Shown here: in pieces, positions 14,262-64,000 of the stretch
How the letters are laid out: each line of letters opens with the position of its first letter
Numbering within the stretch: position 1 is the first letter of the stretch
IMG/VR virus record: IMGVR_UViG_3300045988_105372
Coordinates: 51,462 to 115,461 of that record
Direction: 5' to 3' (one strand)
Length of the DNA stretch: 64,000 nt
DNA from: a virus
The notes under the pieces: model-generated
Seen by the model: the letters and a program-made list of their open reading frames with translations, nothing else
Database searches by the model: none
What the model was told of the DNA's origin: nothing
Made by a program: the position numbers and the translations under genes

Positions 14262-15392
14262 TCAGAATCTAAAATCAAATTTAGGAACTATCTTTTCACC
14301 TGGGGTAAAGTCTTTACCTTGTAATACTTTATCCAATTCTGATTCGTCTATAGTTATAAAAGAATCTCCCTTATGAGAATCATAAAACCACTTGGTCTCT
14401 TGAGTCCTATTTAATACTATATTGAATATCTCTGCTGTCTTACCTTTTTCAAAGCGGATTGATCTTCCTCTCCGTTGACAAGCTCTAGTAGTTGAACTAT
14501 CTAATCCAAATATAATAGCTACAGAAAGACCTTTTACATCAAGTCCTTCATCAGCTTTTTTTACTGTAGATAATAGAGTCACCTTTCCAGAGTTAAAATC
14601 TTCAATAGCTGTAGCACTTCTTTTCTTAGAAGTTCTACTAGAATATACAGTAGCATTAGGAATTTTTTCTGCCATTTTAATATTATTAGCAAAAGTTATT
14701 ATTTTTTTATCCTTTCTAGCTTCTATAATTTTCTTTACTATTTCAATTTTCTTTGAATGATTATTTATGAAAGCTTTTTTCTCATGCATAGTAGACCAAA
14801 ATCTGATAGCATGATAATTTATATTTTGCAATACTTCAGATTTTTTGTTAGGATCACTACACATAGAATCTCTTAGGAGTAGTTTATTTCGCCAACCCAT
14901 AGGACCGGCTAATTTATTAACTAACTCCCAAGAGAATCCGAAGAATTCAAAATGAGAAATGAATTCTTTATTTATTTTTTCATATTCTTCTAAATCATCA
15001 ACATTTACTAAGACTAGATATTCTTTATATGGGCTAACCCAACCATTTGCAAGACAAGTATTAATATCAATAGTATCAATTACTGGACAGTATTTTGCTA
15101 ATATTTTATCTCTACCATCAAGACGCTCAAAAGTAGCTGTAAGACCTAAGATAAATTGGTATTTTACTACTTCAAATAATCTTACAAAAGTCTCAGCTGC
15201 ATATCTATGCGCTTCATCCAGTACTAAAAGATCATATTTGGCAGGATGTTTTATTACAGTGTTTATTATTTGTACATCACAACTTAATCCTAGCCCATTA
15301 GAATCTATATGACCACACCATTGTTTTTGTAAAGTTTCTGTTGGCACAATTATTAGTACTCGATATTGTGGAAAGTGTTTTAACACTGTTTT
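14262..15392 (-). CDS. SF2 (DEAH-box/SNF2-like) helicase, C-terminal exon/segment carrying KT of motif I, motifs Ia (LIIVPTETL), II (LDEAH), III (TATFER), V, VI (QRRGRSIR)
   Basis: ORF track 14262..15386 begins with GTG; in-frame extension AAA ACA (K T) gives ...KTVLKHFPQYRVLIIVPTE; motif I N-terminal part lies 350 nt upstream. Confidence 0.6.
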   Translation of the reverse strand, partial: KTVLKHFPQYRVLIIVPTETLQKQWCGHIDSNGLGLSCDVQIINTVIKHPAKYDLLVLDEAHRYAAETFVRLFEVVKYQFILGLTATFERLDGRDKILAKYCPVIDTIDINTCLANGWVSPYKEYLVLVNVDDLEEYEKINKEFISHFEFFGFSWELVNKLAGPMGWRNKLLLRDSMCSDPNKKSEVLQNINYHAIRFWSTMHEKKAFINNHSKKIEIVKKIIEARKDKKIITFANNIKMAEKIPNATVYSSRTSKKRSATAIEDFNSGKVTLLSTVKKADEGLDVKGLSVAIIFGLDSSTTRACQRRGRSIRFEKGKTAEIFNIVLNRTQETKWFYDSHKGDSFITIDESELDKVLQGKDFTPGEKIVPKFDFRF

Positions 15393-15741
15393 AATACAGT
15401 TTAGTCCTACTCTGGATTTCGATTTTGTTATCGTATAGTTTTTTATCTATACTTCTTACTATTACTAGCAAGTCCCGCATAAATTTTTACCCACTTATTT
15501 CAGTTGGGGTATCGAACACTCGTGGAGAAATTATATTCTAATGAAAATAGTCTAGCTATTAACTAGATTATTTATTAGTTTCATTCTCTATGCTGTACGG
15601 TGTAGAAGATTCTTTAATTTCTTCTATTACCTCGGTATTACCCTCTATAGGGCTTTCACCGATTTTGCTCGATGATAATTCCGAAGATTCCTCTATCGGA
15701 ACGGCATCGTAATTAACAGGTATATGACCCGCTTTTACAGT
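15393..15741 (-). other. ~349-bp intervening element inside helicase Walker A (between GFG and KT codons); candidate intron or other insertion
   Basis: upstream ORF ends ...GTIVASTGFG then loses helicase similarity; downstream resumes KTVLKHF; flanked by ACTGTAAAA / ACTGTATTAAAA direct repeats; contains R/S-like CCAGAGTAGGACTAAAC. Confidence 0.35.
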
Positions 15742-15873
15742 ACCAAATCCAGTAGATGCGACTATTGTCCCTACACAACGATTTTTTATCCATTTTCTAC
15801 GACACTCTTCTTGTCGTTCATCTCTAGTGATTTTATGAAATAGTTCTCCTTCAATCAGAGAGTTTGTAGCCAT
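15568..15873 (-). CDS. helicase N-terminal segment (Q-motif region + first half of Walker A ...VGTIVASTGFG) followed by out-of-context 57-aa tail
   Basis: ORF track; ASTGFG matches AxTGxG of SF2 motif I. Confidence 0.5.
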   Translation of the reverse strand: MATNSLIEGELFHKITRDERQEECRRKWIKNRCVGTIVASTGFGTVKAGHIPVNYDAVPIEESSELSSSKIGESPIEGNTEVIEEIKESSTPYSIENETNK

Positions 15874-16837
15874 TGTAATCAGCTACTGCTTTGATTTGTT
15901 TAATACGCTTCTCCCACTCTGAAGCTTGCCATCTAACCTTATTTTCGAGATGCAGTAAAACTTTATCTCTTAAGGTTTCCAATTGTACTTTAGTCAGATC
16001 ATTATAACGCTTATCATATTTATCCTTACGGAAGGTAAGCATTGCGCTAAACTCTTTTAGAGTTAAGCCTTTTCTATCATCAATTTTTAAAACAAGACCT
16101 TTTCTGTCTTCAGGATTCTTAGGGTCTCTCAATTTAATATTTAGAAGTTCAGCAACTTGCTTAATTCTATCTATTAAACGACCATTCTCGTCTTTCTTAT
16201 TTAATTCTAATAACTCAGAACGTGTAAACCACAATCCAAGCTCAGTAATAAATGTAAGAGTAATGTGTTTACGGACACATTTACCTAAAGCAGATAAACA
16301 AGCTTCTCTAACGATATACAATGGTAATGAAGCAAACATGGTAAATGAATCTTCATCACTATTCATAATATCATTAAGGGTCCACTCTTTAAAGAGAGTC
16401 TCTGCAATAGCACTAACATTTGTCTCGCCCTCACCACTTTCTGCATTCTCTTTAGCAAACTGTTCTGCCTGAGCAGTAATCTGCTGATTGAGCATATTAA
16501 AGAAACTAGTTCTTACAATACCTTGTCTAGTACTACCTTCACCTGGGTACAATAGCCAAATTAAGAACAACTCAGCATTACAGCGAGTTCTTTGATCTTC
16601 AATCTGTTCCAACAAAACTCGTCGTCCAGGATTTTCATAGTTGTCACTATAAAGCATTGATTCACAATGTTTATATGCTTTACGTAATTCTTCTTCAGTC
16701 ATATCTACCATTTTCATAGAAGACTGAATGCGTTCACCATCTACAATTTTTCTGGAACCTTTCCAGAGAAATGTTTCTACATCATTATTCTTAGCTTCAA
16801 AAGCTTGATTGAGTTTATCACCTAAAACTGTTGTCAT
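15851..16837 (-). CDS. hypothetical protein (328 aa)
   Basis: ORF track. Confidence 0.5.
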   Translation of the reverse strand: MTTVLGDKLNQAFEAKNNDVETFLWKGSRKIVDGERIQSSMKMVDMTEEELRKAYKHCESMLYSDNYENPGRRVLLEQIEDQRTRCNAELFLIWLLYPGEGSTRQGIVRTSFFNMLNQQITAQAEQFAKENAESGEGETNVSAIAETLFKEWTLNDIMNSDEDSFTMFASLPLYIVREACLSALGKCVRKHITLTFITELGLWFTRSELLELNKKDENGRLIDRIKQVAELLNIKLRDPKNPEDRKGLVLKIDDRKGLTLKEFSAMLTFRKDKYDKRYNDLTKVQLETLRDKVLLHLENKVRWQASEWEKRIKQIKAVADYNGYKLSD

Positions 16838-16853
16838 AAATCTTAAAGATTAT

Positions 16854-30269: not shown

Positions 30270-31142
30270 TTATAAGCATTTTCTACCTGAGTTTTCTACC
30301 TGAGTTTTAGTGATAATACCCTTAGGTCTCTTATAATTATAAGGAGCAACCATAGCTTCAAACTTCTTAACTGAACTTTCAACATTGTTAGTATCAGTTA
30401 TGTCTTTAAGAAGCTGACCTATAGCACTATTAAGTATATGTGTTACAGCATCAGGAAGTACACAAGAAGATATCCAAGCATAATTATCTAACTCAAAACC
30501 TTCCAAGTGCTTATTCTCTATTGTATCAAGAGCAGTCTTTAAAGCACTCACTTGACGTAGATAAGTGTCACCTCTATAGAGGTTATCATCTGCAATTAAG
30601 TCTAATACTGTTTGTACAGAATTATAGTTAATTTCAGATAAAGTTCTTATCCATACATCATGTGAAGATTTAGCACCTGCACGGAATGTTGGAGTCTGAG
30701 ACTTATCCATAATTAAATTACTTGTAGGAGTAGCATAAAAATGGTTCCAAGTAATTATTTCTTTAGAAGGTAGTATTTGCTGATTACATTTACAACCCAT
30801 TGTAGTCTCTTCCGTAACAAATGCATTCCTAATTTTAGTATTTTTAAGCACTTGTAACATATTGTCTACAACTTTAGCAAACATTCCTTCAGCATGAACA
30901 TCCTCCCAGTAAGAATGTATTTTATAATTCTCATCTACAGAGACTAATGCTCCATAGCGAGTAATGAAATGTTTACAATTTACACAGTTAAATTCTTGAC
31001 GTACGGCTCCTTCAGGGAAAGATTCCATATAAGCCATCCATAAAAATTCTTTTTGAGTGTCAAGAATAAAGAGATGCTTGTTCTCTTTAATCATCTTATT
31101 ACATGCTTCTGTAACAAGATTTCTAAAATCTAAGTATTCCAT
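30270..31142 (-). CDS. N-terminal part (290 aa) of split ~680-aa protein; frame terminated 9 codons after the 13-bp duplication
   Basis: ORF track; see 30286-30311 repeat. Confidence 0.5.
   Translation of the reverse strand: MEYLDFRNLVTEACNKMIKENKHLFILDTQKEFLWMAYMESFPEGAVRQEFNCVNCKHFITRYGALVSVDENYKIHSYWEDVHAEGMFAKVVDNMLQVLKNTKIRNAFVTEETTMGCKCNQQILPSKEIITWNHFYATPTSNLIMDKSQTPTFRAGAKSSHDVWIRTLSEINYNSVQTVLDLIADDNLYRGDTYLRQVSALKTALDTIENKHLEGFELDNYAWISSCVLPDAVTHILNSAIGQLLKDITDTNNVESSVKKFEAMVAPYNYKRPKGIITKTQVENSGRKCL
30286..30311. repeat. perfect 13-bp tandem duplication ACTCAGGTAGAAA x2 (minus sense) causing a +13 frameshift
   Basis: plus strand TTTCTACCTGAGT TTTCTACCTGAGT. Confidence 0.8.
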
Positions 31143-34150: not shown

Positions 34151-34182
34151 AAAAACAAATAATAAAAACAGTTCTATGAACT

Positions 34183-34300
34183 AGTGGAGCATTGGAGAGT
34201 CGAACTCCAGTCTTGCATATTTGCATCAAAACGTTCTTACAGCATAGGTTTTAAAGACTATCCTTGTCTGTTAGGGTTGACAAGATTAGCATTGCCAACT
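34183..34300 (-). ncRNA. tRNA-like element: perfect T-arm TGGAG-TTCGACT-CTCCA and 3' acceptor-like ATGCTCCA but no canonical D/anticodon arms
   Basis: manual inspection; lies in 650-nt non-coding region. Confidence 0.25.
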
Positions 34301-34646
34301 TCCACCACTCTGTTCCTAAAGTATACAGAGAACTAATAAAGAAATAAAAGAATAATGCACCTTTCCGTTCCCAAGCAAGTGCTGCTCGGTTTCTTAGGCT
34401 GCAATAGCGTAAGAAACAGGAGTCATATTGATAACTCTAGCGATTATTGTTTTGTTGTCTCTCCAACTGTCTTGCTGTGTTTCTTATCTCCTATACAATC
34501 AAAACCACGAATGCCCCAATTTAAAAGAGTCCTAAGTTAGAACTCTTTTATAAATTAGTGTCTACCACGTAAATAATTGTAATTATTATACCAATCATCT
34601 GGATCTATTCTATCTTCATTATCCATAATTTAAAACTTAATTAATG

Positions 34647-45668: not shown

Positions 45669-45797
45669 CTGTTTTTGAGTTTTTGTAAGTCCTCCGACTT
45701 ATTAAAGTTTTCGCACAATTTTGATAAGAGCTCTACTTTCACAAGCAAAACTCTTTTATTTTTAACAACTTATAAATTAAAATAATGATAGAAAAAG

Positions 45798-45869
45798 GAA
45801 ATGCGGACAGATTTGAACTGCCAATCTTCTACTCTACGATAGACGCTCTAGCTATTGAGCTACGCATTT
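45798..45869 (-). tRNA. tRNA-like gene with 4-bp anticodon stem and 8-nt loop UCGUAGAG (canonical acceptor AAATGCG/CGCATTT, D-arm GCTC/GAGC, T-arm GGCAG-TTCAAAT-CTGTC)
   Basis: manual folding. Confidence 0.4.
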
Positions 45870-46013: not shown

Positions 46014-46093
46014 ATGTCGCTTAGACGGGATTCGAACCCGTAAGACCATTCCTGGTCAAGGGATTTTCCTACTACACTTGCTTTTATACAAGC
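46014..46093 (-). tRNA. tRNA-like gene with canonical T-arm ACGGG-TTCGAAT-CCCGT but aberrant D/anticodon region (loop TTGACCA)
   Basis: manual folding. Confidence 0.3.
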
Positions 46094-46096
46094 TAA

Positions 46097-46201
46097 CTTA
46101 AATAAAGGGATTCGAACCCTTAATCCTCAAGAGATATTTAATGACGACTTTAGAGGCGCTTCCGTCAATCTGCTGCCGTATACCAATTCCGCCATATTTA
46201 A
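46097..46201 (-). tRNA. 105-nt tRNA-like gene (acceptor TTAAATA/TATTTAA, T-arm AAGGG-TTCGAAT-CCCTT) with ~30 extra nt in the body (contains CUCUAAAG)
   Basis: manual folding. Confidence 0.3.
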
Positions 46202-46694
46202 GTTATTGTAGTCTGGACTATTTTATTACCTTATCAATTAACTTCGAAGTAAGGAATTAGGTTTTACCTCTCTCAATGAGCGTCTCCTTTTTTACATAAT
46301 GCATTATTATTATAACCTTATTACTAAGGATGAAGTCTAAACCATTCCTTTTAATTAACTTAGGTATCTCCTCTATAGTCTCTACACATTTATGCTGTAA
46401 CACTCCAATTTACATTTAAGATAGATTAGCGTTCTATCACAATTTAGCTCGTCACCACCAAAACCTATGTTACCATAAGTGAGGCTTCTGTCGCAAGTTA
46501 ATTAGATTTCTGAATACTGCTTCTATAATCATTACTCTGCTTCTTACACAGATGCTAACCTTTTTACAATTAGTAATTAACTTGTTTAATTAGGGAGATT
46601 CTACTTCTATTATTTCTAATAGAGCACTCAAATTCACCATTACTGGTGTTCCAAAAGTCCCTCGTGTATCCCAGTTTCACCACTAAGCGATAAA

Positions 46695-48371: not shown

Positions 48372-48478
48372 TAGCCCACATTTCTATAAAGGAGAATAGT
48401 GGTAACACCTACCTATACTAATAAATTTATTAGTCAGGATTTATCCAAACACACTAACAATATATCAAATTAAATTTG

Positions 48479-48561
48479 TACGGTAGAAAGGATTCGAACC
48501 AATGACCTTCTCGAAATGACCTATTATAAAAGAGATGCTCTAACCACTGAGCTACTACCGT
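48479..48561 (-). tRNA. tRNA-like gene (83 nt) with canonical acceptor/D-arm but anticodon stem TCTC/GAGA enclosing 19 nt (contains direct repeat AGGTCATT x2)
   Basis: manual folding; T-arm region ATTGGTTCGAATCCTTT identical to 48992..49072. Confidence 0.4.
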
Positions 48562-48991: not shown

Positions 48992-49072
48992 TACGGAGTA
49001 AAGGATTCGAACCAATATAACCTCTCTATGAATTGTGGAAATGAGGTGCTCTAGCCATTAAGCTAACTCCGT
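48992..49072 (-). tRNA. tRNA-like gene (81 nt) with anticodon stem ACCTC/GAGGT enclosing 20 nt; paralog of 48479..48561
   Basis: manual folding. Confidence 0.4.
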
Positions 49073-51408: not shown

Positions 51409-51504
51409 TTTTTTAAACTATTTAATTATTAATAATGTGCCATCACCTTTCTCATTAAGAGTCTGCTACTTTGGATATGTAGGATGTAGGTTTACACTAG
51501 AGCT

Positions 51505-54747: not shown

Positions 54748-55236
54748 ATTGTTAATGTGTTAAATTTATATTCATAGATACCTAATAACGTACAACTGTT
54801 ACTAGGTATTTCGTCCAGCCTCATCAGTATGAATTTTATAGTCTCCTGGTTGACTAAACAATTTCTCTTACTCCTTGTTTAAGGGAAGCCTCTCTTTTAG
54901 CACCGAGGTTATCGCTTTAATAAATAATGTAGAGTCCTTCAACACTTACTATCCCCTCCACTAATTGTCTTTACGCTTTCTTACTTCTAAAGTCTTTTTA
55001 ATACTTTACCAGTAATACTTTCAATGTGTTACGACGTGCTAAATACTGCCTGTACAAACCTATAAAAGGATAAACATCCGTTCTACTATTTAGCTATATA
55101 CTAGGATGATTTTTCAACTTAATTTAAAACATATTAGATAGGAACAGGTTTTACACAATACCCTGTATTACTTTCCGACTGTAGTACGGCAACCTATAGC
55201 TAGATATATCCTAGCCAGATTTTTTAGATTAAACAC

Positions 55237-58449: not shown

Positions 58450-58636
58450 TAAGATAGTTCCTAATCTTACAGTATCTCAATTAATAGAACTAGTAAATAT
58501 TATTAATGGACCTAAATTAACTATAGACAATATGGTTTTAAAAGATATACCACATAATGGGTTTATTACAGTAGACACTAATAGTATTAAAACTACTTCT
58601 ACTGAAAATCCTTTTAGTGTTAGTAGTTATCTATAA
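58424..58636 (+). CDS. hypothetical protein (70 aa)
   Basis: ORF track. Confidence 0.35.
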   Translation: MIETLQKINKIVPNLTVSQLIELVNIINGPKLTIDNMVLKDIPHNGFITVDTNSIKTTSTENPFSVSSYL

Positions 58637-58940
58637 AGATAATATTCTCCTATGGTGTAATGGTTAGCACAGAAGACTCTTAATATAAGGAGCTTTATAT
58701 GGCGACATATATTGAAACTCTTCCCCTAATAAACCGAAACCTCGAATATAGTAATATATTCTTTGGCGAGGGCTTACTAAATTAACTTATAAAAGTTATA
58801 AATGGCGTAGAGACTATACAGGGAAGCATCTCTAGTAGATGAAGAAATAGTCCAGACTACAACATCCTAATAGGATGGCTTATGTAAAAGTAAGAGTAGT
58901 ATGAAATCTTTTAGTCAGGGTTCGAATCCTTGTGGGAGAA
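58636..58940 (+). tRNA. intron-containing amber suppressor tRNA, tRNA-Sup(CUA), Gln-like D-arm; exons 58636-58670 and 58904-58940
   Basis: exon1 TCTCCTA-TG-GTGT-AATGGTTA-GCAC-A-GAAGA-CUCU; exon2 AAA-TCTTT-TAGT-CAGGG-TTCGAAT-CCTTG-TGGGAGA-A; spliced anticodon loop CUCUAAA. Confidence 0.7.
58671..58903 (+). other. 233-nt group I intron in anticodon loop (between positions 35 and 36) of the suppressor tRNA
   Basis: 5' splice after U pairing to G of internal guide GGAG (P1 CUCU/GGAG), terminal G at 58903, core-like AGAGACTATAC ... AATAGTCCAGACTAC (P7 GACUA/UAGUC). Confidence 0.6.
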
Positions 58941-58941
58941 C

Positions 58942-59465: not shown

Positions 59466-60602
59466 TTATTTTATATATAAAAAATTTCCTCCGCCCGTAT
59501 TTTGAGCATCATATTTTAGTAAGTCATCTCTAGTAAATATTTTATCAAAAGTTCTTAATCCTGAATGATAAGTACCATTATCTAAAGTATATAAATCTAC
59601 TGTTTTAACATTGTTTCTAGATTTCATAGCTTCTATCTCATCTCTAATATTATCTATACTTCCGGAAACTAAACGAACTTCTTTACCCGCCTATATAATT
59701 ATTCTTCCTCCAGCTATAGAACCATATTCATCAGTTCTATTATTATTAGCTAAAAAATTTAGTCTGTTATTTACAGATTTACCATTTACTATAGCATTTA
59801 ATATAGGACTTTTTCTAGAACCATTAGAATTACTTTCCATGAATAATACATTATCTTTAGAATCTGTTTTAAAACCAGTAACTGTATTTTTAAATGTTGG
59901 AGAAATCATACTTCCATTAGGAATATCTGAATATTTACCAAAAACAAATTTACCAATAGAATCTATACCTATATAATTCTAATTATTAGGAGATATGCTT
60001 TCTTTAGATTTGAAATTAGAAAAAGCAGTAATAGGAGCTGCTACACTATTTATAGGAGTATAATCACCTCTATTTCTATAACCAAAAGTATGCTTTGTTA
60101 AATTTATGGATTCTGGTATACGATATCTTCTAGAGTTTATTTTAGTAGTATCATTTATAGTATAACTATTTGGAGATATTTCTATTTCTAAATTTTCTCT
60201 CCTCTTATTTTTAGTTACTTTTTTATTAGAAATTTTAATTCTTTTACTAGTATGCTCAGGTTCTGAATCAAAAAATAACTATAGTTTTCTACTTAATCCA
60301 TTTCCTACTAAATTAATCAACTATTTACCACGTTCCCACATTGTTTCTTCTTTCTATTTAGAAGTAGATATTTTTTTAGCAGTGGGCATTTCTTTATATT
60401 TTGCAGGATGGTATACTAAGGTAGATGTTGGTTTAGTAGGATCTACTCCTTTAGCCTAAACCTATGGAAATATTATACTATTAGCTTTATCAGAATTAAT
60501 TTTAAAAGGGACTTTATTTGATTTTCTTCTACCATACAACTACCCATCTTCATACCAATAATCATATATTGAATCATTGTTAGTAATTACCTATACAGCC
60601 AT
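59466..60602 (-). CDS. late-region protein (378 aa) with 10 in-frame TAG codons; function unknown (virion-type gene block)
   Basis: manual translation: frame open for 379 codons with no TAA/TGA in ~72% AT DNA; ends ...NTGGGNFLYIK-TAA. Confidence 0.5.
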
Positions 60603-61723
60603 GGTGTTCTTACTATTACTGGAGTTCCTAACTTATCTAATATTTTTAATCCTAATACAGCTTTACTGTCTAAATCATATGAACTCCATTTCTACTTATA
60701 TTCATCAGGATTAAACTTCCAAATATCTTGTGCTCTATATACTTTCTTACCATTAGATGTTCCTTCCTAAACTAAATGTCCAGCAGCATCAACTCCATTA
60801 TCTCCAAAGTCTAGATTATTATTAGCACCTTTCCAAGGAGTTTTATTAGTTATATTAGAAGCTTTCTACATAGATTTCTTAGTAAAGAAATCTAAAGTTT
60901 CAGTATTTTCATATACAGGAATATCTTTATATGGATATATCTTTCTTATATAATTCTCATGTGGACCATAATCTACATTTATTTTCTTTACTCCATAAGA
61001 AGGATTTATAGTTTTATTATATAAATAAGCATCAATCATATCATTACCTTTAGCTGCTTTCTAAAATCCAGTATATGCTTCAGGAGCATAGGTATTGTAA
61101 CCTACACCAGTTGATATATAAGACAATACTCCAGCATGCTTTTTAGGACTTGCCTTATGCATATTATATACTATGTCTTCTATAGGATTCGCATTATTAG
61201 AAGTTCTCATAGCTACTTCTACTCCACGTTTTAAAGGAGCTTTTACAGCATATCCTATTGCAGGAAGCATTACTAAATAATTACTAGCTTTAGTTGGATT
61301 CTTAGATATATCTAAAGCACCTTTAGTATAATCATATACTGCCTAAGCGGCTGGAGCTAAAGCATAACCTATTCCTGAATTAACTAATGCTTTAATAGGA
61401 CTAGTATTATTATTCCAACTATCTACTTCTCTAGCATAAGCTCCTTTTATAGGATGGGTTCTATTCTTATTACTATAATTATATAATTTAGAATGAGTAT
61501 GTCCTACCTATTTTATAGTCCCTCTATTATCTACAAATACATCTTGTACCCCATTTAAAGTTCTAACGGGAATAACTCTCTACTAATATTTAGCACCAAG
61601 ATATGAAGATTTAAATCTAGGATGATTTAGTCTATTATAATATTCCATATCTATAGCCATCTATTTATTCCGAGTATTATTATTTACTCCTTTATTTTGT
61701 TTACTCTCATCTACTATTGGCAT
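60587..61723 (-). CDS. late-region protein (378 aa) with 9 in-frame TAG codons; contains VGHTHS patch
   Basis: manual translation from ATG 61721-61723 to TAA 60587-60589; track fragment 61061..61270 is an internal piece. Confidence 0.5.
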
Positions 61724-61937
61724 ATTTATACTTTATTTTTCCATATACTAGTTATACTATCAATTCCTAGTAATCCCATACAACAATATAAAACTGTATC
61801 TATCATATCAGGAGCTTGTATCTAACTAATAGAACAGTATATTAGAATAATTAAACTTACTATCCATCCTAATATTCCACACACTCTTTTACTACTTATT
61901 CCAGTATGTGCTGTTATTAATTTAATTAAAAACTATT

Positions 61938-63308
61938 TCATTTCTAAGAATTATTTAAGAACGGTAAACTCATACCTATAGGTGCTGCTATTCTGAGTGC
62001 ATTAGAATCTAACTCAGGAATAGTTAATCGAGAATCTCGTAATATATTTCCAGTTATTCCTTTAAGAGGTATTCTATTTCTTTTCATATTAAGTGGAATT
62101 AAAAAATCCTCATTTATTTCATACTCAATATTAGGATCATTACCTATTATATTAGAAGCTTTATACTAGTTAAGCTACGTTTTTGGTATATCTATATACT
62201 ATAATTCTATAGAATTGTCAACTCCTTCTTTTATAGCTTTTCTTCGAGTATTAGAAGCATATATTAATGTTTTTCTTGGGTTATCAGTAAACCACATTCC
62301 TGTATATTTAGCTGTTCCATCCGGAGATGGAGTAAATTTACCATTAGTACCAGAAGCTCTATATAATCTTACCATACCCTAATCTAATTTAGGTTTCTAA
62401 AATATTCCTACTTCAATAGGTTCTTTAGTTCCCTTCATAGTAAGTTGTCTAGTTCCATTCTAGATAAATCCAAAGTCTTTACCAAATCTATTTATACCAT
62501 GAATACCTCCTTTAGATATAGAACCCCAAGTAGAGAGATTAGCACCTTCAGGTACTTCATCTGCTACCTTAGCAAATAGCTACATTTTATTACCATAACT
62601 TAGACCATTTCTATCTGTTTTAAAATGAACTGAATAATTATTAGGTTCAATATCCTTTACTAGTTCAAATCTTTGATTAGGCTATTGTTTAAAGAAATAA
62701 GAAGTAGCTTCATTTCCTTCAGCTTTTCCAGTACTCCAAGCCTTTCTAGTAGGTTTATAATAAGATAACTGCATAATAGGATTATCTCCTGTTGTATATT
62801 CTTTAGCAGCTAAGTTATTAGTAATTCCTTGAGATACATTTTTAGTTAAATTTCCAGCAGTTTCATTAAGTAAACTATTTCTTGCCCAATGTGAAACGGC
62901 ATTCTAACCCATTTTAGAAAGAGCTATTTTGCCTAAACTCAATCCTAAATTTCCTGCAGCAGTTCCTACTATAAATTCTCCTACTGGATCAGCTCCTGAC
63001 ATAGCCCCTGCTTGAGGATTAGTACTAGTTTTAGTATTTCCCTACTAATCCTTTACTGTAACTACCTCACTATGAGGCACACTCCTCTTAGCTAAAGCTA
63101 TCCTCTCTTTAATTGGTAGATTATTATATTTAGCTTTTAAATTTTTAGCAACAGGCTATAATCTATTTTTTAAATTAGTAGGATTAAGAATTCCCGTAGA
63201 TTGAGCGTTTCTAGTTATTTCCTAATCCTACTTAGATTGTTGCCACGGTAATCCAGTGGTTTTAAAATTTAATTTACCTGCTTTCTAATATTTAGGTATC
63301 CATTTCAT
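61938..63308 (-). CDS. late-region protein (456 aa) with ~17 in-frame TAG codons
   Basis: manual translation from ATG 63306-63308 (MKWIPKY[TAG]KAGKLNFK...) to TGA 61938-61940. Confidence 0.5.
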
Positions 63309-64000
63309 ATCTCTTTAAATATTTATTCCATAACTATCGATCTCTTTCATCTACAAAATTTAGAAATTCTTGTAATTCATTCAATTGTATATTTATATCT
63401 TTCATTTCTTTAGATATATTTTATATTGATCATAAGGATTATCTATATATCTCTATGTAGGAGTCACTGTAATTTCAGGCAGTACAACTCCGCCTTTATA
63501 AATCATAGTAGTCTAACCATCCTAATTACCATCTGCAGTTCCAAATAATGTAAGATTTGGATTTTGCATTCCGAAATCAGTTAAATAAAATTTGATTCCT
63601 GATTTATTAAATTTGCCCCTAGAAGGGTGTGTAGGATGATTACTTAATTTTACATTATCAAGATAATGTTCTCTAGAATTAGGAGTTAACTAAGACAATA
63701 ACTTATTATTAACGTTATTATAATTTCCATTCCCATATTTTACCTAATTAGGAAATTCCCAAATTATATTAGCTAGAGCTCCTGTAGTAAAACTTCCACC
63801 CTACTATAACTACTATGGAGTAGGCAAAACTTTACCTTTTTGATATTTAGGAACTAATTTAAGCATTTCTAAATTTATTTATATATTTTGCAACATTAGT
63901 GCCATTAGCATCAGCGCCTCCTGCAATACCATACTTATAATAATTTTTAGTCCATTTTGGATTTAACCATGATGCTGCTATAGCTTCTCCAGTAGCTGCT
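63292..64000 (-). CDS. late-region protein, 3' end only (continues beyond window), TAG-containing; stop TAA overlaps next start
   Basis: manual translation ...LQEFLNFVDERDR[TAG]LWNKYLKRYEMDT-TAA. Confidence 0.4.

Follow-up and report, generated by a model that had tools for sequence, protein, structure and literature searches.

Structure of a split tRNA(CUA) gene and its intron

We analysed a 64,000-nt stretch of DNA from a gut phage (the window), which spans positions 51,462 to 115,461 of the IMG/VR record IMGVR_UViG_3300045988_105372 and in which the gene of an amber-suppressor tRNA, tRNA(CUA), is interrupted by an intron within its anticodon (Table 1). The first exon reads UCUCCUA-UG-GUG-UAAUGGUUAG-CAC-A-GAAGA-CUCU and the second AAA-UCUUU-UAGU-CAGGG-UUCGAAU-CCUUG-UGGGAGA-A. 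Joining the two exons in silico gave a 72-nt tRNA with the loop CUCUAAA and the anticodon CUA, which ARAGORN called as tRNA(cta) (73 nt by its own count). The spliced 72-mer is identical (72/72) to contiguous genes found at two related loci, L008 and L006, whose 5' half is the same as exon 1 in every letter, and the contiguous L008 gene scored 63.6 bits on the Rfam tRNA model RF00005 (cut-off 29). The predicted ligated junction is ...GAAGACUCU|AAAUCUUUU..., and the predicted 40-mer across it is GGTTAGCACAGAAGACTCTAAATCTTTTAGTCAGGGTTCG. A preliminary description of this DNA had already assembled the 72-nt cloverleaf from two half-tRNAs and had given the spliced loop as exactly CUCUAAA. Its coordinates had to be corrected, since it started the tRNA at 58636 instead of 58646, set the 5' junction at 58670 instead of 58680|58681 (a 10-nt slip) and assigned 233 nt to the insert, which measures 223 nt (58681-58903).

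Neither ARAGORN with default settings nor Rfam at gathering thresholds, when run on the window, showed the tRNA(CUA) locus. The intron mode of ARAGORN did see a split gene here and misplaced its splice sites, calling His(atg) or Lys(ctt); it also mis-called the split genes of the phages cr115_1 and Lak-B1, described below, as Ser(cga). We therefore took the intron boundaries from intronless alleles, and these boundaries are unambiguous because the last base of exon 1 differs from the last base of the insert. A protein-spliced tRNA intron of the bulge-helix-bulge kind was considered and rejected, since the insertion at 35/36, the length of the insert and its ribozyme-like fold all speak against it. 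Only one base separates A58940, the tRNA's 3' end, from the ATG (58942) with which the following small open reading frame (ORF) begins, and tRNA 3' processing would therefore leave the downstream message essentially leaderless; in relatives, the spacing between tRNA and ORF is about 30-75 nt.

The split gene stands at the boundary between a TAG-poor gene block, which extends up to about 56 kb with 0-2 TAGs per long ORF, and a TAG-rich one. Four TAG-rich ORFs adjoin it, in agreement with the TAG-containing genes of the preliminary description, and their 9-16 in-frame TAG codons each imply that a tRNA(CUA) is needed for translating them. Among the aligned TAG positions, 93/101 are also TAG in relatives. 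We obtained no reading of the amino acid inserted at TAG from substitutions at these 101 positions, because the relatives are too close. The 3-bp D-stem GUG/CAC is common to the split tRNA(CUA) and the phage tRNA-Gln(UUG), and the U1-A72 pair is also tRNA-Gln-like, with an overall identity to the phage tRNA-Gln(UUG) of just 55%; Gln is the published TAG assignment for such recoded phages (PMC10879173). Comparison of nine neighbouring proteins with PHROGs gave no matches, and blastn against phage records gave one unverified scaffold, MT835539, as the sole match.

Table 1. Coordinates in the window of the split tRNA(CUA) gene, the paired (P) and joining (J) regions of its intron, and related features
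Feature	Position	Strand	Description
tRNA(CUA) exon 1	58646-58680	+	acceptor 5' strand, D arm, anticodon stem 5' strand, loop C32 U33 C34 U35
Group I intron	58681-58903	+	223 nt, ORF-less; between anticodon nucleotides 35 and 36
P1	58677-58692	+	exon CUCU and intron U1 paired with internal guide AGGAG (58688-58692)
P2	58696-58711	+	hairpin UAUAUG/CAUAUA, GCGA (GNRA) loop; 6/6 pairs with compensatory changes
P3 5' strand	58720-58725	+	CUUCCC, partner 58821-58826; 5/6 pairs changed on both sides
P4	58734-58771	+	C58734-G58771, C58735-G58770, G58736-C58767; encloses P5 and P5a
P5 and P5a			inside P4; P5 CC/GG; P5a GAAUAUA/UAUAUUC with GUAA loop, double changes in 6/7 pairs
P6 (proposed)			C58773-G58805, U58774·G58804; invariant, outside the covariation count
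P6a	58783-58798	+	hairpin UAACU/AGUUA; 5/5 pairs covary
P7 5' strand	58812-58817	+	GACUAU, preceded by GUAGA (J6/7 and bulged A); partner 58847-58852
P3 3' strand	58821-58826	+	GGGAAG
P8	58827-58841	+	hairpin CAUCU/AGAUG; short form
P7 3' strand	58847-58852	+	AUAGUC, within J8/7-P7' motif GAAGAAAUAGUCCAG
P9.0 region	58856-58903	+	ACUAC (58856-58860) with GUAGU (58896-58900); encloses P9 and P9a; terminal G58903
P9	58863-58877		5/5 pairs covary
P9a	58879-58894		2/5 pairs covary
tRNA(CUA) exon 2	58904-58940	+	A36 A37 A38, anticodon stem 3' strand, variable loop, T arm, acceptor 3' strand, then discriminator A58940; CCA not encoded
Four TAG-rich ORFs	59466-63878	-	9, 9, 16 and 9 in-frame TAG codons
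Split tRNA-Leu(UAA)	46017-46689	-	exon 1 46689-46655, 587-nt intron 46654-46068, exon 2 46067-46017

The insert has a covarying group I architecture. At its 5' end, P1 consists of the pairs C58677-G58692, U58678-A58691, C58679-G58690, U58680·G58689 and U58681-A58688, with the U·G wobble U58680·G58689 at the 5' splice site. Guide and exon change together from host to host: suppressor tRNAs combine GGAG with CUCU, and the tRNA-Leu(UAA) introns of loci L022 and L029 combine GAGU with ACUU. The last intron base is G58903, which is independently fixed by intronless alleles, and the core motifs GUAGAGACUAUAC and AAAUAGUCCAGACUAC were both found in the intron. The U·G pair with its GGAG guide, the terminal G and the R/S-like core motifs had been read correctly in the preliminary description. 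P7 crosses P3 to form a pseudoknot and is 100% paired and invariant in the sample; the invariant strands G(A)GACUAU/AUAGUCC can form with a bulged nucleotide, and this helix is the putative guanosine-binding site.

Homologs were collected with an 18-nt word from the putative P7'/J7-9 region, giving 47 IMG/VR loci (44 distinct), and 15 compact copies were aligned, 11 of them hosted by tRNA(CUA), three by tRNA-Leu and one by tRNA-Lys. RNAalifold recovered P2, the long-range P3, P4, P5, P5a, P6a, P8, P9.0, P9 and P9a from this alignment, and we added the P3/P7 pseudoknot by hand before counting. Paired cells amounted to 93.3% in this structure versus 34-45% in slid controls, 33/57 pairs were changed on both sides (8-15 in the controls), and the covariation score was 0.44 (0.04-0.08 in the controls). 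None of 500 shuffles matched the structure in pairing, double changes or covariation. The helices that covary across the 15 homologs are P3, P5a, P6a, P8 and P9, and the middle pair of P4 is A-U in eight sequences, C-G in five and G-C in two. A leave-out covariance model, built from 13 homologs and thus without the window and its near-twin L011, matched 58716-58903 over its full length with 191.8 bits (E 4.4e-44), about 36 of which could stem from the retrieval word while the remainder is independent; this match has 35% GC and ends on G58903. Finally, splicing in silico after an exon U and behind an intron G gave an ARAGORN-valid tRNA in 34/34 loci with defined boundaries, the products being CUA, Leu UAA, Arg UCU, Lys UUU or Ile UAU. 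Judged by comparison of homologs, the view that the insert in this suppressor tRNA is a group I intron is well supported.

With this architecture, the primary transcript would fold into a ribozyme whose guide AGGAG pairs with the anticodon-loop bases C32-U35 as P1. An external guanosine would then attack after U58680, G58903 would dock next, and the exons would be ligated. The loop CUCUAAA and its anticodon CUA would exist only after ligation, and splicing would thus be obligatory before the TAG-rich genes are translated. That the intron is catalytic, how efficiently and when it would splice, and how it would move are matters of inference.

Allelic states and recurrence in recoded phages

An exact 27-mer of exon 1 retrieved 13 related loci from IMG/VR contigs, to which the GenBank scaffold MT835539 (L016) was added. 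The gene is uninterrupted, with an empty site, at nine loci (L001-L008, L012). L011 carries the same intron at 95% identity, with an upstream flank only 84% identical and with the pairing preserved. At L009, L010, L013 and L016, a different insert of 1003 nt occupies exactly the same site (58680|58681). One lineage thus holds nine empty sites, two copies of the 223-nt intron (the window and L011) and four of the 1003-nt insert. The flanks of the window are 98.9% (upstream) and 99.3% (downstream) identical to those of the intronless L003, and in sister phages flank identity is 96-99%. Within the 1003-nt insert lies a gene for an HNH endonuclease of 272 aa (phrog_10822, E 2.7e-42) that has no in-frame TAG. 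The insert follows the same exon U, begins with U and ends with G, and its RNA tail of about 230 nt contains the group I-like strings GACUAAAU, AGAGACUGG and GAUAGUCU; an Rfam search with the RNA part of this insert gave no match. HNH endonuclease ORFs are present in many relatives of the 223-nt intron, which is itself too short for any endonuclease ORF.

The intron family also resides in ordinary phage tRNAs for Leu, Arg, Lys and Ile, and among suppressor tRNAs it has members in three or more phage groups that are unrelated to each other. A blastn search detected copies in cr115_1, a crAss-like phage, and in the megaphages Lak-B1, B3, B6 and B9. The loop CUCUAAA is interrupted by an intron in at least eight tRNA bodies that differ from one another, and two unrelated inserts share this site. 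At a core identity of 70-80%, suppressor-hosted and Leu-hosted introns are not clearly separated, which suggests guide retargeting and possibly a horizontal spread of suppressor cassettes.

The complete genome of cr115_1 (RefSeq NC_055898.1; L186/L187) has in-frame TAGs in the genes of TerL (7), the portal (12) and gp52 (80), and none in those of DNA polymerase, primase and helicase. Default ARAGORN lists only Leu, Leu and Arg tRNAs for this phage, and RefSeq annotates no suppressor. The sole tRNA(CUA) that we found is the split gene at complement 30533-30833, directly upstream of TerL. It is preceded by a pseudoknot-like conserved element, CCCUUACGUGGAGGGU...CCACGUG, which also occurs upstream of the tRNA in L023 and L033. 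These last two loci hold near-identical introns in two different tRNA(CUA) bodies, ending ...GUAGUACA|AACCC, and their final intron base is A where G is expected; decay, an alternative choice of the 3' splice site or an unusual terminal nucleotide could account for it.

For the Lak phages, the published Tables S2A and S2B give a Sup-CTA for Lak-B2, B4, B5, B7 and B8 and none for B1, B3, B6 and B9 (PMC6784885). The split gene was found by blastn in exactly the four genomes without a listed Sup-CTA. Split genes would explain the apparent absence of a suppressor from several TAG-recoded phage genomes. The Lak locus itself differs between genomes: in B1 (L014), a tRNA like that of the window (62/72 identical, with compensatory stem changes) carries the intron, and in B2 (L185, 415400-415800), the Sup(CUA) has no intron and another body, similar to that of the L036 and L039 tRNAs, and is followed by an identical downstream flank. 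This difference is compatible with replacement or exchange of a cassette or with co-conversion of exons during homing. Intron and exon co-conversion could in this way ferry suppressor-tRNA cassettes between unrelated phages and spread recoding.

Origin of the intron and alternative explanations

At least 120 bacterial loci contain the core strings GUAGAGACUA...AUAGUCCAG. The search pattern comprised 19 fixed bases, for which about 100 chance matches are estimated in 596 Gb, and the locus count is therefore no evidence in itself; what counts is that in 14/14 bacterial loci examined the core lies inside split tRNA genes. These are genes for Leu(UAA), for tRNAs with the anticodon CAU (Met or Ile) and for Arg(CCU or UCU), and the carriers include Nostoc, Bradyrhizobium, Polynucleobacter, Vibrio and Akkermansia. 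Introns of this type, which we take to be those usually called IC3, would share their core with the Azoarcus and Anabaena tRNA introns. The intron of the window resembles the bacterial tRNA group I introns, namely those of cyanobacterial and plastid tRNA-Leu(UAA), of tRNA-Ile(CAU) of the Azoarcus type and of tRNA-Arg(CCU) of the Agrobacterium type, in its size class of about 200-250 nt, its anticodon-loop site, its helix set, the identical strings GUAGAGACUA (J6/7-P7) and AUAGUCCAG (P7'-J7/9), and a P1 formed with anticodon-loop bases. It differs from them in that its host gene is a stop-codon suppressor tRNA(CUA), its guide is retargeted to CUCU (GGAG, not GAGU), its insertion lies at 35/36 instead of 34/35, and its sequence is very AT-rich. 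What the phage and bacterial introns have in common is the catalytic core, not the overall sequence.

We consider it highly probable that the insert is a mobile intron of group I, of the type known from bacterial tRNAs, which has entered a phage amber-suppressor tRNA(CUA) gene between nucleotides 35 and 36. Several observations weigh against this. The search with the Rfam group I model RF00028 (Intron_gpI) that the preliminary description had proposed gave, in E-value mode, only 16.8 bits at 58670-58873 (E 0.065), under the cut-off of 50, so that the group I assignment stands on the architecture, the covariation and the leave-out model and not on this test. The low score of the phage copies is due to their AT-richness, and one homolog, L060, whose host tRNA(CUA) has a long variable arm, reaches 56 bits. 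Moreover, only 4/10 tested bacterial tRNA introns with the same core passed the RF00028 cut-off (52-62 bits), and the model is therefore barely sensitive to the bacterial tRNA-intron subclass. P7 and P9.0 are invariant in the sample and so gave no covariation signal, in part because the 18-nt search word was used to gather the homologs. The P8 of the window is without the CCUAAG...UAUGG tetraloop receptor present in the P8 of L015, and folding could therefore be weaker, while the folding z-score of the single sequence was only -1.55 and uninformative. An nhmmer profile of 107 bacterial introns matched 58802-58941 (E 7.9e-15), and this match fell from 48 to 7.9 bits when two core motifs were masked, so that we used it for the shared core only and not for overall homology. 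Finally, ARAGORN found no second tRNA(CUA) within the 64-kb window, and another beyond the window is possible.

The role of the intron was also considered. Its three allelic states, the HNH-bearing insert, the copies in ordinary tRNAs and the unseparated cores together indicate a selfish mobile intron, and sisters with 96-99% identical flanks have the same TAG-rich genes and no intron, from which it would follow that the intron is dispensable for the life cycle. Most likely, the intron is a selfish element that persists through efficient splicing rather than a dedicated regulator. The preliminary description had seen in splicing a second gate on the code switch. This can be retained in the trivial sense that splicing would be obligatory; beyond that, the sister alleles, which lack the intron or carry the HNH insert, fit a selfish element. 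According to a stronger version of the gate, slow or conditional splicing (depending on GTP, Mg2+, temperature or a factor) would time the switch to TAG as a sense codon and with it the late and lysis genes. The logical need for splicing before a CUA anticodon exists, the position of the split gene at the boundary of the TAG-poor and TAG-rich blocks or, in cr115_1, directly upstream of TerL, the theta ribozymes already proposed as a control on suppressor tRNA maturation (PMC10879173) and the recurrence of the intron in suppressors of at least three unrelated phage groups all suit such timing. We nevertheless regard it as improbable, since the intronless sisters keep the same TAG-rich genes, the family is found in ordinary tRNAs as well, including the tRNA-Leu(UAA) of the window, an unrelated HNH-bearing insert sits in the same site as expected at a homing hot spot, and the intron has no sensor-like extra domain. 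Regulation of splicing beyond obligatory maturation is unsupported, and nothing points that way.

A related possibility, which overlaps with the mobile intron that we favour, is that the group I intron is genuine but not autonomous and would depend for efficient splicing in vivo on a protein, be it an RNA chaperone of the phage or the host or a maturase-like endonuclease whose gene lies elsewhere. Its very AT-rich RNA (35% GC over the model match) with a weak fold, the lost P8 receptor and the HNH endonuclease ORFs in many of its relatives are in line with this; we hold such a dependence to be rather unlikely. Compact tRNA group I introns are classic self-splicers, and 223 nt are too few to encode a protein of this kind. 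In Patescibacteria, moreover, introns at 35/36 in tRNA-Asn, tRNA-Asp and tRNA-Tyr were verified experimentally to splice accurately (PMC13011429). It is very unlikely that the insertion has inactivated the suppressor, leaving a non-splicing intron in a dead gene and the decoding of TAG to another phage tRNA or to the host. Although the visible genome measures only 64 kb, RF00028 stays below threshold, the P8 receptor is missing and the introns of L023 and L033 end in A instead of G, the exons are 72/72 identical to those of intact alleles, all helices are intact in the window copy within a family that shows compensatory evolution, and L011 keeps its pairing at 95% intron identity with an 84% identical upstream flank. 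In addition, the split gene is the sole tRNA(CUA) found in the complete cr115_1 genome, and no other is listed for Lak-B1. An assembly artefact or a chimeric contig is scarcely credible, since the same arrangement is present in L011, which comes from a different IMG/VR sample (3300001528), in four manually curated Lak-B genomes, and in RefSeq cr115_1 together with several cr115-like contigs.

A mobile group I intron in the anticodon of a suppressor tRNA belongs to a known kind, the group I introns of tRNA anticodon loops, with a new and consequential host gene, the phage amber suppressor. Among phages, group I introns in protein genes are exemplified by td, nrdB and sunY of T4. Others are described in protein genes of crAss-like phages (PMC7886860) and of Jug phages (PMC12880540); they are mobile and self-splicing, often associated with HNH or GIY-YIG endonucleases and frequent in gut phages, and in these respects resemble the present intron, but they split mRNAs, whereas here the interrupted gene encodes the tRNA by which the phage's alternative code is defined. 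Bacterial tRNA group I introns occur at nearly every anticodon-loop position including 35/36, as shown in a 2026 paper (PMC13011429). The Patescibacteria introns of that report share with ours the position 35/36 and the escape from standard tRNA finders, and differ in that their hosts are bacterial sense tRNAs; the passages searched contain no mention of a suppressor tRNA, and the word 'phage' appears once, in a reference title. In the same ecological group of recoded gut phages, theta ribozymes, which are hepatitis delta virus (HDV)-like, have been proposed to control suppressor tRNA maturation (PMC10879173). They likewise couple a ribozyme physically to maturation of the code-switching tRNA, but are small self-cleavers that trim its 3' end, whereas here a splicing ribozyme would split the anticodon itself, and without it there would therefore be no anticodon at all. 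In the same Lak megaphages, Devoto et al. (2019, PMC6784885) reported 'enigmatic' introns that likewise lie in tRNA genes, those for Tyr, Phe, Gly and Thr; these introns were obtained with a eukaryote-mode tRNA scan, one example being about 93 nt long, and, in contrast to the present case, were not classified as group I and include none in a suppressor. The main recoding papers mention introns in protein genes only (10.1101/2021.08.26.457843; PMC7886860), and the theta-ribozyme paper does not mention introns (PMC10879173). Our literature search, in line with what the preliminary description had supposed, turned up no account of group I introns in phage suppressor tRNAs; most subscription journals lie outside its coverage, and this absence is no proof.

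As default tRNA finders and Rfam miss split genes, recoded phages can seem to lack the suppressor that they need. The RefSeq record of cr115_1 and the published tRNA tables for Lak-B1, B3, B6 and B9 are cases in point, and a 2025 paper on Zeta crAss-like phages puzzles over recoded genomes without a detectable suppressor tRNA (PMC12386605). The practical value thus lies in the annotation of recoded gut phages. Mobile introns have repeatedly targeted the suppressor-tRNA loop CUCUAAA. The alternative genetic code of such phages would hinge on RNA-catalysed splicing, which offers a testable handle on the timing of the code switch, and a natural intron-split suppressor tRNA is a ready part for splicing-dependent control of stop-codon suppression.

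Other RNA elements in the window and its relatives

The split tRNA-Leu(UAA) of the window contains an intron of the same family as that of tRNA(CUA), and splicing in silico gave Leu(taa). Covariance model R1 made two partial matches to this intron (57.2 and 55.9 bits), and default ARAGORN and Rfam, run on the window, left the gene unseen. In the P9 region of the intron, at 46097-46201 (minus strand), lies a tRNA-like element with a GGGTTCGAATCCC T-arm, which scored 33 bits on the Rfam tRNA model (cut-off 29). The arrangement resembles a tRNA lying inside the intron of another tRNA and recalls the Lak observation of Devoto et al.

Directly 3' of the intronless suppressor tRNA in L003-L006, an insert of about 75 nt contains an element of about 60 nt (at about 7732-7795 in L006). 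It starts with G after the discriminator (GAATAGCGTAAGTAGAAACCTCCACGTGGTGCTATTCGGATAACGCTAATTCTAC) and has the nested pairings GAAUAGC/GCUAUUC and GUAGAA/UUCUAC, and thus looks like a candidate HDV-like 'theta' ribozyme cutting at the tRNA 3' end; Rfam gave no match to the copy after the L003 tRNA. The window also holds a RAGATH-1 hammerhead ribozyme at 54772-54856 (minus strand; 75 bits, cut-off 56.3), of which another copy is found in L036, a phage with a split suppressor tRNA.

A further segment, 15627-15693 (minus strand), aligned in nhmmer (E 2.5e-5) with the portion of the bacterial tRNA-intron profile that covers P2-P5; Rfam and covariance model R1 gave no match to this segment. It is flanked by the ORFs 14262-15455 and 15851-16849, which might be halves of one gene. 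On the same strand, the phage encodes a transfer-messenger RNA (tmRNA; 34182-34517) and three odd tRNA-like genes, at 45797-45869 (given the two-base 'anticodon ta' by ARAGORN), at 48478-48561 (Tyr(ata) in ARAGORN) and at 48992-49072 (called by Rfam only).

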